IMG/VR virus record: IMGVR_UViG_3300025410_000009
Source: a virus
Lineage: Duplodnaviria; Caudoviricetes
DNA length: 64,000 nucleotides
Direction: 5' to 3' (one strand)
Shown here piece by piece: positions 3,391 to 7,464 of the stretch. The notes under the pieces were generated by a model, which worked only from the letters and a program-made list of their open reading frames with translations, was not told the origin of the DNA and did no database searches. A program made the position numbers and the translations under genes. How positions within the stretch are numbered: position 1 is the first letter of the stretch; each line of letters opens with the position of its first letter.

Positions 3391-3855
3391 TTATTTTAAC
3401 TGTTTTACCATACGCACAAATTCAGGCACATACCCGTTGGCTTTGGCTATGTCCCGAATTCGTGTGTTATCAACGTGCAACATGCTGCCAGCACGAGTGC
3501 ACTTGTTGCGGCGTGCAGAAACTTCAAAAAATTGATGCAACTGGGCATACAACCCACGTCCTTGATATTGATTGTGTACATTAGTAAAAACAATCCAGGC
3601 CAAATCACTGTCAAATCTAAAGGTTATACTGGCTGCAATGGTGTCGCCATACTTGATATAGATTGTGGGATTGTTAGTAAACGGTACGGTACTGCCAATA
3701 GGCGCATGCCCGGCATCCAGCAGGTCGGCATACTGTCTCAATACTGTAGTATATAATGTGGGCACATCTTTGATACTACTGGTGTACCAAGCAGTATAGG
3801 TATCGCCCAATTTATCAGTCCCAGTTTTAATTTGAAAGTGAGTAATTTCAGTCAC
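3391..3855 (-). CDS. GNAT-family acyltransferase
   Basis: Motif A VHNQYQGRGLY, then N...A...GY; 8-nt overlap with the desaturase stop. Confidence 0.75.
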   Translation of the reverse strand: MTEITHFQIKTGTDKLGDTYTAWYTSSIKDVPTLYTTVLRQYADLLDAGHAPIGSTVPFTNNPTIYIKYGDTIAASITFRFDSDLAWIVFTNVHNQYQGRGLYAQLHQFFEVSARRNKCTRAGSMLHVDNTRIRDIAKANGYVPEFVRMVKQLK

Positions 3856-4657
3856 GGCGTGAGCGTCCTAATACAGGTAAAAATATAACACAGGGATCAA
3901 ACTCCCACCACCGACCACTGGTGCCGCGGCCAAAATCAAAATTGGCTGGTCTAGCATGATGATTGTTGTGCCAGCCTTGACCCCAGCCCAAATAGCCCAA
4001 TACAAAATTATTTTGGCTATGATCTCGAGTGTCGAAGTTTCTATAACCAATCAAGGCCTTGACATGTCCAAACACATTGACAGCATTGTCCTGCAATAGT
4101 CCAACCATGCCGGGAATGAAACACATGCTCATGGCCAAACGCCAATCGTACAGGGCAATCACGGCCGGTGTCAACCACAATATCTCGTAGCAGTACTTGT
4201 GAAAGAACACAAAATTGGGTTTCTTGAGTAAGTCAACTGCATATTTCAAATTGACCACATTGAATGTGTCACTGTTGATCCAGCCCATGAAGGCTTGCCA
4301 TCGGCTGTAGGCCACTGGGCTATGATAATCTTTTGCAGTATCAGCGTGGGGGTGATGATATCCTCGATGTAGTGCTACCCAAAAAATACAAGAACCCTGA
4401 CCCGACAAGGTGGCAAAGAATAGTATGATGTTTTCTTTCCAAGTGGGTATCACATGTGTTTTGTGACTAAAAATTCTATGATAACCCACAGCAATACCCA
4501 GTCCCGAAATCAAGCACCACATGATCAATGATGACCATAGGTATACCAAGGGTATGATGCCTATAGCAAACAACACCGTGGTCACCAGGCCCATGGTCAG
4601 CAAAGGTACCACGCCAAACCACATGCCGCGATTGACATTAAATCTATTAAAAAACAT
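3848..4657 (-). CDS. Membrane-bound delta-9-type fatty acid desaturase
   Basis: Three His boxes (HRIFSH, HRGYHH, HNNHH) plus hydrophobic TM segments. Start moved to the ATG at 4657, giving a TAATG overlap with the upstream stop. Confidence 0.9.
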   Translation of the reverse strand: MFFNRFNVNRGMWFGVVPLLTMGLVTTVLFAIGIIPLVYLWSSLIMWCLISGLGIAVGYHRIFSHKTHVIPTWKENIILFFATLSGQGSCIFWVALHRGYHHPHADTAKDYHSPVAYSRWQAFMGWINSDTFNVVNLKYAVDLLKKPNFVFFHKYCYEILWLTPAVIALYDWRLAMSMCFIPGMVGLLQDNAVNVFGHVKALIGYRNFDTRDHSQNNFVLGYLGWGQGWHNNHHARPANFDFGRGTSGRWWEFDPCVIFLPVLGRSRRD

Positions 4658-5253
4658 TATATGTTGCCCCCAATTGGTAATACTGTGCGGAATTCTTGTT
4701 TTAAAAAACTGCATCGCACAATACTGTCTGTGGGCAGCAGGCTACGCTTAAACAATAACTCCCAATCTCGATTGTAATAAGTTTTGTATTTAGCTGGTAC
4801 CATGTACTCGTCAACATAGTGATAACGATTGCTGTTGTATTCACTCCAGTACAGTCTACGTAGAATACGTGCATGGTCAGCATTGACCAAAGAATACACC
4901 TTTAATCTACCCTGTGCTTCTTGCATGGCAATAATGACATCCAAGATGTCTTTGAGTAGTGCATTGTTGCCATTGGATCTTGCCAGGGTATAGTACCAGC
5001 TGGGCTCATCGACACTGGTATAGTAACACACAAATGCATGCACGATACCCGCTTCGTCTATAGCACCATAGGCACCAAAGTTATTGAGATCACCAATATA
5101 GGCATTGCAAAATCTGTCGAATGTGGCATGAGCAAAAGTTTCGGGGTCAGTGTCCCACGTCTGTTGGTTTACCTCGGCACCCATGTATTTTTCATTGAAA
5201 AACAAATCGCGCACACCTGCACGATGTTCTTCGGTGAGCTTAACTATGTTCAT
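4657..5253 (-). CDS. Hypothetical protein, possibly GNAT-like fold
   Basis: N-terminal IVKLTEEHRAGVRDLF and AYGAIDEAGIVHAFV resemble the GNAT beta1-alpha1 and beta2-beta3 elements; no clear motif A. Confidence 0.45.
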   Translation of the reverse strand: MNIVKLTEEHRAGVRDLFFNEKYMGAEVNQQTWDTDPETFAHATFDRFCNAYIGDLNNFGAYGAIDEAGIVHAFVCYYTSVDEPSWYYTLARSNGNNALLKDILDVIIAMQEAQGRLKVYSLVNADHARILRRLYWSEYNSNRYHYVDEYMVPAKYKTYYNRDWELLFKRSLLPTDSIVRCSFLKQEFRTVLPIGGNI

Positions 5254-6169
5254 GATCAATTCCCAATTGTTTGTATAATTCAGTTAAAGGTATGCCGTCA
5301 AGACTGGATTCTAATCTACGCACATGAGTTTGGTTCAGCGTATTGTAGGTTTCTTCATTGAATCCCAGCAATTTTTCGTAGCCGGTGGTCTTGGCCTTGC
5401 GTATCAAGTTGGGCATGTACTGATACAGCACTGAATTTTTAGTGCTCACGCTGCCCAGCTTGTAATTGAATCTTTCACGGACCATGCTGGCTATTGTGGG
5501 ATGACGTAGATAATACACCATCATTTCAGGAGTATAGCTGAACCACTCGTTTACCAGTGGCAAATTGTATTTGAGGCTAAAGCGCATGGCGCTGGCATCT
5601 TCGTTTTCGCGAATCACATAGTACCAATAACTGTCGCCGTTGGCAGGTACTTGTCGACGCAACAGCATCTCACCACCCATCACAGCCGGTAGGCCCATTT
5701 TTTTAATTTGGTTGTAGACTGTGAGATAAGCCATCTGACGACAAGCAATCTCACCAGCAAATTCGGCTGCGGCGCCACTGCGGTAAAATTCTCGAATGTT
5801 GACGTCGGCTACTTCGAGCTCGAGATCTAGTTGTTCGCACACCAACCGTGCATTGATATAGTCAATGTTGTTGTAGCGATTTTCAAATCGTATGAATACT
5901 GCACGAGGTCGAACACCAATTTTGAGAAATGCACGTAGCACTATCTCACTGTCAGTCCCGCCCGAAAACATGACCACAAAATCTTTGCCAAATTGATCAC
6001 GCACAGCTTCGGCAGTACGATATTGTTCATTCAGCCAGTTGCTGGTACGTAGTTGGTCTGGGTCAACTGTACCCACTGCCACACGATAACGATCAGTGGG
6101 CCATTCTCTAGTGCCGTAAAGTCTATCTTCGATCCAGTATTTTAAATGATTGCCTAGGGTAAATTCCAT
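5240..6169 (-). CDS. PP-loop (adenine nucleotide alpha hydrolase-like) ATPase
   Basis: VVMFSGGTDSEIVL PP-loop motif; no glutamine amidotransferase domain. Confidence 0.75.
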   Translation of the reverse strand: MEFTLGNHLKYWIEDRLYGTREWPTDRYRVAVGTVDPDQLRTSNWLNEQYRTAEAVRDQFGKDFVVMFSGGTDSEIVLRAFLKIGVRPRAVFIRFENRYNNIDYINARLVCEQLDLELEVADVNIREFYRSGAAAEFAGEIACRQMAYLTVYNQIKKMGLPAVMGGEMLLRRQVPANGDSYWYYVIRENEDASAMRFSLKYNLPLVNEWFSYTPEMMVYYLRHPTIASMVRERFNYKLGSVSTKNSVLYQYMPNLIRKAKTTGYEKLLGFNEETYNTLNQTHVRRLESSLDGIPLTELYKQLGIDHEHS

Positions 6170-6183
6170 GTCAAATCATTTTC

Positions 6184-6408
6184 TTAGATCAAAACCATCA
6201 GATCCCCAAAAGTCACTGGTGCAGAATCAGGATCGGGAATTTCACGTCCCAGAGTCTCTTCGATCCACATTTGCAGTTCAATCGAATCTAGGCTATCTAG
6301 TCCCACATCAGTCAATTTGACTTCGGGTGTGATTTCCACAGTCAGCGGTTTCTTTTTAACTGCTTCTAGGCCTTTTATGATTAACTCGAGTTTTTCAGTA
6401 TCAGTCAT
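6184..6408 (-). CDS. Acyl carrier protein
   Basis: 74-aa acidic protein with the phosphopantetheine site GLDSLD, then IELQMWIEE and TFGDL helices typical of AcpP. Confidence 0.88.
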   Translation of the reverse strand: MTDTEKLELIIKGLEAVKKKPLTVEITPEVKLTDVGLDSLDSIELQMWIEETLGREIPDPDSAPVTFGDLMVLI

Positions 6409-6423
6409 GATGTTCCTTGTTGA

Positions 6424-7035
6424 TCAAATATTTATTTGACCCCGGCTCCATGCTTGTAATTCAGCCAAGTTGATTTGACTGTCGGTTTGACACACTGGCT
6501 TTATCACACACCATTGCGGTGTCGATCGTATACGTACTTGTTTTTCAACAGCCACACAGTCGTCCCACCACGAACTCCAACCGCGGGTGACTCGATACAG
6601 CCCACGTGCCACTGCCACATGCAGGCCTCGATTGTAGTCATTGAATGTCAACAACATAAAATTACAACCACGCTCACGTGCCCAAATCAACTGTTGATCA
6701 AGAAATTGACTGGGCAATTGCTGTGTTCTATGTTGGTCGGTGATCCATATACGTATGCCACCAATGGCCCAGGCCTGGGTATTTTCAGGATACTCTACAC
6801 AACTCACTGCCACAATTTGGTTGCTGTGCTCGGCCACATAAATGGCGCCTTGATCGCTGTTCCACCGCAGTTGATTTTTTATGTTGTACAGCAGGCCGGC
6901 TGTGGAATCCATGCCCATGTTTGCCGCTGCCGGCTCAGTGCTGTTGGCAATTTCCTGATTGACAAAGTCTGACAGCTTGGAAAATTCTGTGTCAGTGATG
7001 GTGTTGCTGGTAGTGGACCAGAATGTGTAATTCAT
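6424..7035 (-). CDS. GNAT-family acyltransferase
   Basis: IYVAEHSNQIVAV, RIWITDQHRTQQL (motif A-like), TFNDYN. Start moved to MNYTFW (7035) because the longer ORF runs into the tRNA. Confidence 0.7.
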   Translation of the reverse strand: MNYTFWSTTSNTITDTEFSKLSDFVNQEIANSTEPAAANMGMDSTAGLLYNIKNQLRWNSDQGAIYVAEHSNQIVAVSCVEYPENTQAWAIGGIRIWITDQHRTQQLPSQFLDQQLIWARERGCNFMLLTFNDYNRGLHVAVARGLYRVTRGWSSWWDDCVAVEKQVRIRSTPQWCVIKPVCQTDSQINLAELQAWSRGQINI

Positions 7036-7041
7036 GTTGTA

Positions 7042-7339
7042 TGGTGCTCCGAGCCAGACTCGAACCGGCACGCCTTTCGGCGAGAGATTTTCTTACCACT
7101 ATAGCTTTCGCTACCTTTACAGTTTTGTGGTCTGGACTATACCTTCATCATAGCATCAATGCCTTAGATGCCCGCCGTCTAGTCTCTACACGTTCAAAAG
7201 TATTTCTACTTAGGCTTCGCTCGGTATTAGCATTTTACAGCCTTCACCGAATTTGACGGGTTCTACTCCTATCGTTTCCAATAGGGCACTCAAATTTTAC
7301 TCTCAAGTCTCTTGTGTCTACCTATTTCACCATCAGAGC
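7042..7339 (-). tRNA. trnL-UAA: tRNA-Leu(UAA), split by a group I intron (exons 7339-7305 and 7091-7042; 85 nt after splicing)
   Basis: 5' exon GCTCTGATGGTGAAATAGGTAGACACAAGAGACTT; 3' exon AAAATCTCTCGCCGAAAGGCGTGCCGGTTCGAGTCTGGCTCGGAGCACCA. Acceptor stem GCTCTGA/TCGGAGC, anticodon stem AGAGA/TCTCT, loop CT-TAA-AA, long variable arm, encoded CCA. Confidence 0.92.
7092..7304 (-). ncRNA. Group I self-splicing intron (IC3/Azoarcus-like), 213 nt, no ORF
   Basis: Core elements AAATTCGGTGAA, AATACCGAGCGAAG, GTAGAGACTAGACGG and AAGGTATAGTCC. P7 GACTA/TAGTC; P3 CCCGTC/GGCGGG; IGS GAGT pairs with exon ACTT (U.G at the splice site); terminal omega-G at 7092; GAAA tetraloops in P2 and P9. Confidence 0.92.
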
Positions 7340-7346
7340 AATTAAA

Positions 7347-7423
7347 TGGTGCGCCCACTAGGACTTGAACCTAGGACCAATGGATTATGAGTCCACTGCT
7401 CTGACCAACTGAGCTATAGGCGC
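7347..7423 (-). tRNA. trnI-CAU: tRNA with CAU anticodon, most likely tRNA-Ile2 (lysidine type)
   Basis: GCGCCTATAGCTCAGTTGGTCAGAGCAGTGGACTCATAATCCATTGGTCCTAGGTTCAAGTCCTAGTGGGCGCACCA forms a full cloverleaf with CCA. The GACTCATAATC anticodon arm is like bacterial Ile2; elongator Met cannot be excluded. Confidence 0.88.
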
Positions 7424-7435
7424 TACTAAGTGTTA

Positions 7436-7464
7436 ATTATAGCACTAGGTGTGCGTGGTGTCAA
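7436..7464 (-). promoter_or_regulatory. Consensus sigma70 promoter TTGACA-N17-TATAAT driving the tRNAs and probably the ACP cluster
   Basis: Perfect hexamers with a 17-nt spacer, 12 nt upstream of the CAU tRNA. Confidence 0.85.

Follow-up and report, generated by a model that had tools for sequence, protein, structure and literature searches.

The window analysed here (64,000 nt of the IMG/VR virus record IMGVR_UViG_3300025410_000009, which is 210 kb in all and has a CheckV completeness of ~60%) carries on its minus strand, from 7339 to 7042, a tRNA-Leu(UAA) gene into which a 213-nt group I intron is inserted between U34 and A35. With its intron search switched on (-i), ARAGORN reported a tRNA-Leu(taa) of 85 nt with a 213-nt intron at gactt/aaaat, and the joined exons form an ordinary class II tRNA-Leu with a long variable arm, A73, an encoded CCA and the anticodon UAA. 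The group I intron model of Rfam (RF00028) matched 7308-7117 (-) over its full length (model positions 1-253; 53.6 bits against a gathering score of 50; E-value 8.5e-11), and this was its single match in the whole 210-kb record. These two independent detectors concur on both gene and intron. An earlier reading of the letters by a model (the original prediction) had placed a phage tRNA-Leu(UAA), interrupted by a compact group I ribozyme, at exactly these coordinates and had proposed both searches as checks; the identification stands, and is borne out further by the covariation among relatives described below. Standard tRNA scans had been expected to pass over the gene, and default ARAGORN, run without the intron search, did not report the tRNA-Leu, its sole call there being the neighbouring tRNA(CAU) (7423-7347).

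All of the structural elements that had been named beforehand are in the sequence: P1 (ACUU/GAGU), P2 with a GAAA loop, P3, P7 (GACUA/UAGUC), P8 with UCUAAG/UAUGA, P9a with GAAA, and the omega-G. Also present are P4, P5, P6, P6a with a third GAAA loop, a 3-bp P10 and a U.G pair at the 5′ splice site (Table 1). A 3-bp extension of P1 competes with the 3-bp P10. The UCUAAG...UAUGA of P8 corresponds to the 11-nt tetraloop-receptor motif except that U-A replaces the outer C-G pair, and by analogy it would act as a tetraloop receptor. The minimum-energy fold of the 298 nt taken alone contains the four tRNA arms together with P1, P2, P3, P4, P5, P6a, P8, P9 and P9a (z = -2.37). One open reading frame (ORF) overlaps the intron (7023-7256 (+), 77 aa); it is antisense and extends through exon 2 and past it. 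There is no endonuclease ORF within the intron, since 213 nt leaves no room for one.

Two invariant motifs of the core served to scan IMG/VR for relatives, of which 57 distinct pre-tRNA-Leu copies from phages were aligned (alignment A2). RNAalifold predicted 62 pairs on these copies, 41 of them with compensatory changes. The P3/P7 pseudoknot is beyond RNAalifold, and a separate list of pairs was therefore counted by hand, giving compensatory changes in P2, P3, P6a (4/5 pairs), P8 and P9a (counts in Table 1), and in one pair each of P5, P6, P7 and P9. Invariant among the 57 copies are U-1, its partner G, the G-C pair of P7 and the terminal G. The intron of the window is 85-93% identical to many independent copies, and the differences are mostly compensatory. 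This pattern is the signature of an RNA selected to fold, as opposed to a decaying insert.

The host genes in this alignment are not uniform in shape. Thirteen of the 57 were called tRNA-Leu(UAA) without a long variable arm; these are ~73 nt, class I-shaped genes with a UAA anticodon and the same intron (for example L012:5025-5295, L016:1845-2120, L023:10422-10693, L029:2628-2896, L037:2742-3013 and L057:1303-1577).

Table 1. Features of the split tRNA-Leu(UAA) gene and its surroundings. Intron base 1 is position 7304 and intron base 213 is position 7092; pair counts refer to the 57 aligned phage copies.
Feature	Position	Strand	Description and evidence
tRNA-Leu(UAA) exon 1	7305..7339, 35 nt	-	Acceptor 5′ strand, D arm, anticodon stem 5′ strand, C32, U33, U34; ARAGORN -i
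Group I intron, without ORF	7092..7304, 213 nt	-	Assigned to subgroup IC3, class Leu.3Ug; RF00028, ARAGORN -i, covariation
tRNA-Leu(UAA) exon 2	7042..7091, 50 nt	-	A35, A36, anticodon stem 3′ strand, long variable arm, T arm, acceptor 3′ strand, A73, CCA; ARAGORN -i and joined exons
P1	Last 4 exon 1 bases (ACUU) with intron bases 14-17 (GAGU)	-	U-1.G14 pair at the 5′ splice site
Internal guide sequence GAGU	7288..7291 (intron bases 14-17)	-	G14 pairs with U-1; U.G in 57/57 relatives
P10, 3 bp	First AAA of exon 2 with UUU 7292-7294 (U11-U13)	-	A-U in 55-56 of 57 at two of three positions
P2 hairpin, 7 bp, GAAA tetraloop	7268..7285 (intron bases 20-37)	-	7/7 pairs compensatory
P3	5′ strand 7255-7260; 3′ strand GACGGCGGG right after P7 5′ strand (intron bases 45-50 with 126-134)	-	4/4 variable pairs compensatory, 100% canonical
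P4-P5-P6 domain and P6a hairpin with GAAA loop	7190..7250	-	P4 invariant; P5, P6 and P6a each with compensatory changes
P7 5′ strand GACUA and P3 3′ strand	7171..7184 (P7 = intron bases 121-125)	-	P7 99.6% canonical; one A-U to U-A pair
P7 3′ strand UAGUC	7135..7139 (intron bases 166-170)	-	Pair count over the copies
P8 with UCUAAG...UAUGA	7146..7170 (intron bases 135-159)	-	3/4 outer pairs compensatory
P9 (CCAC/GUGG), P9a hairpin with GAAA loop, terminal G at 7092	7092..7130	-	P9a 5/5 pairs compensatory; terminal G in 57/57
tRNA(CAU), called Met	7347..7423	-	7 nt upstream of tRNA-Leu; ARAGORN; Rfam RF00005, 74.3 bits
Putative sigma-70 promoter, TTGACA-17 nt-TATAAT with TG extension	7436..7464	-	13 nt upstream of the tRNA pair; 12/12 consensus positions

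The intron has many relatives in other phages. The first core motif was found in at least 120 viral contigs of IMG/VR; among the matches listed, ~68 introns are in tRNA-Leu(UAA), and ~70% of these matches are in this tRNA at the same site. Sixteen hosts that ARAGORN called 'tRNA-Tyr(AUA)' are actually tRNA-Leu(UAA) genes in which the program had shifted the splice site by 2 nt. A few copies follow U34 of tRNA-Thr(UGU) or tRNA-Arg(UCU), and CUU or CCUU always precedes the intron, matching the guide sequence. The second core motif, searched in the viral and cellular collections, added at least 104 viral contigs. Not every viral match is in a tRNA gene, with 31/120 (first motif) and 47/104 (second motif) of those listed lying outside any tRNA. 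Two introns of tRNA-Thr(UGU), located after U34 (L050:2344-2629 and L095:9251-9529), nest within the virus tRNA-Leu clade, which suggests jumps to other tRNAs whose anticodon loop starts with CUU.

Named phages are included among the carriers. The same tRNA-Leu site is occupied in Agrobacterium phage Atu_ph07 by a copy of 278 nt (L001:1494-1855; record positions 112890-113251) and in the 735-kb megaphage LR756501 by one of 205 nt. In Pelagibacter phage HTVC120P a close relative (L003:1464-1654) divides the capsid gene into two annotated coding sequences. The GenBank entry of Atu_ph07 has no tRNA annotated in this region, and a 38-aa 'hypothetical protein' is placed over exon 2. Searches with RF00028 that admitted E-values up to 0.001 reported none of the Atu_ph07, LR756501 and HTVC120P copies.

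The same core motif is also present in at least 120 bacterial genomes, including Alpha- and Gammaproteobacteria, Acidobacteriota, Cyanobacteria and others. Among the bacterial matches listed (at least 120), 56 are in tRNA-Leu(UAA) at the same site and the rest are in tRNA-Arg(CCU), Ser, Phe, Met, His and others. The insertion point between U34 and A35 is, as had been predicted, that of the cyanobacterial and plastid trnL-UAA intron. In the survey of Williams (2020), which covered bacterial and archaeal genomes only and did not include phages, this site of tRNA-Leu makes up class 'Leu.3Ug', and the classical bacterial tRNA intron classes were assigned to subgroup IC3. The intron of the window has the site sequence of that class (CUU/...g/AAAA, U34/A35), aligns with the bacterial tRNA-Leu(UAA) introns in a single tree, and has core motifs in common with the 56. 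Its stems and GAAA loops are present and P5abc is absent, the label IC3 itself being taken from the class assignment of Williams (2020). By site and sequence it is a classical bacterial/plastid trnL intron of class Leu.3Ug, and through that class probably of subgroup IC3. The original prediction had set the trnL site against an Azoarcus-like core, as if the two pointed in different directions; there is no real tension between them, IC3 being the subgroup of every classical bacterial tRNA intron (Williams 2020).

A tree of 205 introns was built from the viral and cellular motif matches listed, in which some 'viral' or 'cellular' contigs may be prophages or mis-binned. The intron of the window falls in an all-viral group of 33 rows, and its 67 nearest rows among these matches are viral. 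The nearest cellular copies among them are in Rhizobiaceae tRNA-Leu and Rhodobacterales tRNA-Phe, ~0.65 substitutions per site away. Across the same-motif rows of both collections, the label switches between virus and cell at least 11 times, and four of the switches are forced by well-supported branches; a virus-only origin of the intron family was rejected on these counts. The phage copies are therefore a largely separate pool that has repeatedly exchanged introns with bacteria. The earlier suggestion that phages may carry tRNA introns between bacterial lineages fits these switches, and it fits the HNH endonuclease family that phages and bacteria have in common (see below).

Among close relatives the presence of the intron is patchy. 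Eight IMG/VR contigs have the layout of the window, a tRNA cluster including tRNA(CAU) and tRNA-Leu(UAA) 1-7 kb downstream of UvsX-UvsY, and their UvsX proteins are 75-100% identical to that of the window. Three of the eight have the intron (L090, L014, L119). The other five (L334, L332, L317, L257, L286) are without it, and so provide the intron-less alleles for which a survey of relatives had been proposed. Intron-less phage alleles show up to 96.5% identity to the exons of the window. In bootstrap trees of UvsX, which are poorly resolved, the intron-bearing phages formed one clade in 0/200 replicates.

In phages as well as bacteria, the longer introns at the same site (688-847 nt) contain an ORF whose product has an HNH nuclease motif; it is in sense orientation in L013, L027 and L067, and L038 has it on the antisense strand. 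Between phage introns and bacterial tRNA-Leu introns, these HNH proteins are 36-62% identical. What is seen here is the ordinary life cycle of homing introns: endonuclease-driven invasion, loss of the ORF, and then a bare ribozyme that persists or is lost. Mobility of the copy in the window is inferred from its relatives, because no endonuclease gene is found in or beside it. When the HNH ORFs of the long relatives were compared with the 210-kb genome, weak, motif-level matches only were obtained. The segment 27275-27517 (+), which weakly matches the HNH protein encoded in the long phage intron L013 (30% over 96 aa; E-value 2e-4), may represent a free-standing HNH endonuclease.

One of the intron-bearing relatives changes partner within the ribozyme. 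Contig L090 (4,911 bp, from another sample) shows zero differences to the window from 11814 down to 7171 (4.6 kb); past 7171 it has 26 differing positions through P8, P9 and exon 2, and beyond 7041 it is unrelated. The switch at 7170/7171 coincides with the P3/P8 boundary, which directly follows the best-conserved part of the core. In four lake samples the short-read unitigs branch at 7171-7240 and reach 2-6 times the depth of the flanks there, so several phages in those samples share the core. L090 may have arisen by genuine recombination within the ribozyme core, or may be an assembly chimera formed at a repeat common to several phages.

The genes for a gp32-type single-stranded DNA-binding protein, UvsX and UvsY (T4-type) lie 2.5-5 kb upstream of the tRNA pair. 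UvsX is 63-69% identical to UvsX of the jumbo phages (340-490 kb) Vibrio phage 2.275.O, Atu_ph07, CBB, GAP32 and XbC2, the value for Atu_ph07 and CBB-like phages being 67%. DNA of the phage was found in freshwater and lake metagenomes. The carrier is a freshwater jumbo phage.

The 210-kb record has two tRNA genes only, tRNA-Leu(UAA) and tRNA(CAU). The latter is not an initiator, as G1 is paired with C72 and the anticodon stem is without the three G-C pairs. It has C4-G69, C5-G68 and G27.U43, which we take to be marks of tRNA-Ile2, and it may be a tRNA-Ile2. The CAU anticodon of tRNA-Ile2 is modified and reads AUA, a codon used 13 times per 1000 codons in this phage. If tRNA(CAU) is tRNA-Ile2, both phage tRNAs may serve A/U-rich codons. 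Among the Leu codons of the phage, TTG accounts for 37% and TTA for 15%; UUR codons together make up 52%, so that a mature tRNA-Leu(UAA) has an obvious use for the phage. A terminator-like site was looked for between the tRNAs and the downstream genes, and none was seen. Directly downstream of the tRNAs (3391-7032 (-)) is a tight run of genes for a GNAT-like protein, an acyl carrier protein, a PP-loop/QueC-like ATPase, an unknown protein, a fatty-acid desaturase and another ORF, which may be a phage acyl-transfer pathway.

Most probably the element is an intact, ORF-less IC3 intron of class Leu.3Ug in the jumbo phage's own tRNA-Leu(UAA) gene, which is spliced out and is a selfish or near-neutral passenger. 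The tRNA(CAU)-tRNA-Leu pair would be transcribed from the consensus sigma-70 promoter predicted upstream of it. The intron would then fold and bind guanosine in P7, and the precursor would be cut after U-1, held in the U.G pair of P1. P10 would align exon 2, the terminal G would enter the guanosine site, and ligation of the exons would yield the 85-nt tRNA, reading UUA and UUG. The ribozyme probably self-splices. As a passenger, the intron would bring no benefit to the phage and would derive from a large, mainly phage-borne clade that spreads by homing, using the HNH endonucleases of the longer members, and by recombination between co-infecting phages. Copies without an ORF would persist through clean splicing and through being alleles immune to cutting.

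Several observations weigh against this account. The RF00028 score exceeds the gathering threshold by just 3.6 bits. No homing endonuclease was found in or beside the intron of the window, its neighbours being a 380-aa protein of unknown function, a GNAT-like protein and an acyl carrier protein. Public RNA runs were searched for this phage and none contained it, the best run having 42% of its words, which come from relatives. Four lake metatranscriptomes contained only relatives, 95-96% alike and unspliced, for which precursor RNA and contaminating DNA are equally possible sources. Two metatranscriptome joints that skip 213 nt were considered as evidence of splicing and rejected; their flanking letters differ from exon 1, and they come from other, intron-less tRNA-Leu alleles. 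The neutrality of the intron for the phage is the default reading.

A more active role can be imagined for the site, tentatively and with the balance of probability against it. Phage tRNA-Leu(UAA) would be a contested target, where HNH enzymes cut the intron-less genes of rivals (possibly also that of the host), ORF-less copies are selected as immunity alleles, and the near-invariant core is a portable site of crossing-over at which co-infecting jumbo phages exchange neighbouring gene modules. If so, L090 would be one such crossover event.

It is improbable that the intron is kept specifically as protection. On this explanation, splitting the DNA of the anticodon arm makes the tRNA-Leu(UAA) gene uncuttable by the HNH endonucleases of related introns, and positive selection would favour the ORF-less intron as an immunity allele in communities with many endonuclease-bearing phages; the HNH enzymes would cut the intron-less alleles of competing phages, perhaps also that of the host. 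The HNH genes at exactly the same site in family members from phages and bacteria agree with this, as do the coexistence of intron-bearing and intron-less alleles among close relatives and the core depth in the lake samples, 2-6 times that of this phage, by which several carriers co-occur. The HNH target is, however, assumed, the copy encodes no such enzyme and has none beside it, and its own genome gives only the weak HNH-motif matches already described. The ordinary cycle of gain, decay and loss of homing elements predicts the same pattern without any benefit to the phage.

A regulatory or defensive function is very doubtful. The original prediction had proposed that splicing times the supply of tRNA-Leu, or hides the anticodon loop from host anticodon nucleases until the tRNA matures; nothing was found in support, and the idea is mechanistically weak. 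A predicted strong early-type promoter precedes the gene and the demand for UUR codons is heavy, both being circumstantial. Against this, a mature tRNA is exposed to nucleases for all of its working life, so a short-lived precursor protects nothing, and close relatives have intron-less alleles at the same genomic place. The same ribozyme is found in other tRNAs and in protein genes, which suggests opportunism over a role specific to tRNA-Leu.

A dead ribozyme in a tRNA pseudogene, for which one could cite the predicted status of splicing and the Rfam score near the threshold, is highly improbable, since all core pairings and catalytic landmarks are intact and match the family consensus, the sequence stays close to many independent copies with mostly compensatory differences, and the exons are undamaged. 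It is just as hard to credit that the contig was mis-joined at an intron core common to several phages in the sample, even though the unitigs branch at 7171-7240 with raised depth and L090, identical from 11814 to 7171, differs from 7170 on: flank depths on the two sides match in four samples (6.98 vs 6.4; 18.3 vs 19; 5.4 vs 6.9; 3.2 vs 4.1), the intron-less relative L332 keeps the gene order on both sides, and each half of the intron is joined to its own exon and flank, so that the intron is present under either join. The window looks sound because of these matching depths and this synteny, and mis-assembly at the intron was judged unlikely.

The element is a genuine member of a well-known ribozyme class, in a type of host that the literature has overlooked, and it looks intact. 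Complete trnL-type ribozymes are common in phage tRNA genes, being present in the window, in Atu_ph07, in the 735-kb megaphage and in more than 200 metagenomic phage contigs. Counts of phage tRNAs are too low, because default tRNA finders skip split genes, Rfam misses several copies and one copy is overlaid in GenBank by a spurious protein. Accounts of the trnL intron, long told from cyanobacterium to plastid, must also make room for a large pool of viral copies in exchange with bacterial ones. Studies of splicing and homing can draw on these ribozymes, which are compact, natural and have many covarying relatives.

Compared with the bacterial and plastid trnL intron, the intron of the window has the same host gene, the same insertion point (CUU/intron...g/AAAA), U-1, the terminal G, the stem set and the core motifs, and in both cases some members have an HNH endonuclease ORF of the same family. 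It differs in its carrier, which is a virus instead of a cell or plastid, although a class criterion based on the carrier is not a structural one. Its P2, P6 and P8 are short, giving 213 nt, and most sampled bacterial tRNA-Leu(UAA) copies are 200-270 nt. The tRNA-Ile intron of Azoarcus sp. BH72 (IC3, class Ile2.5Ug) is likewise a compact ribozyme of ~200 nt assigned to IC3 and without an ORF, in which P2 and P9 end in GAAA loops and P8 contains a receptor of the 11-nt type, but it has another host tRNA and another insertion point in the anticodon loop. Its P7-P3-P8 sequence is presumably nearly the same as that of the window.

The classical phage group I introns (T4 td, nrdB and sunY; Bacillus phage DNA polymerase; Twort; capsid and tail genes of mycobacteriophage Cluster J) are similarly phage-borne, self-splicing, patchy among relatives and often linked to homing endonucleases, but all of them are in protein-coding genes. 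They are mostly of subgroup IA2 and others. The original prediction had drawn this same contrast, and a 2014 review agrees, placing every phage group I intron then known in a protein gene and none in a tRNA gene (PMC3984707). A search of the full-text literature, with subscription journals outside its coverage, found no account of phage tRNA genes that contain a group I intron. The 'enigmatic' tRNA introns of Lak megaphages, called by Devoto et al. (2019) the first reported in phage tRNAs, are also in the anticodon region of phage tRNA genes; they are, however, short and were not classified as group I (PMC6784885), whereas the intron of the window is a complete ribozyme.
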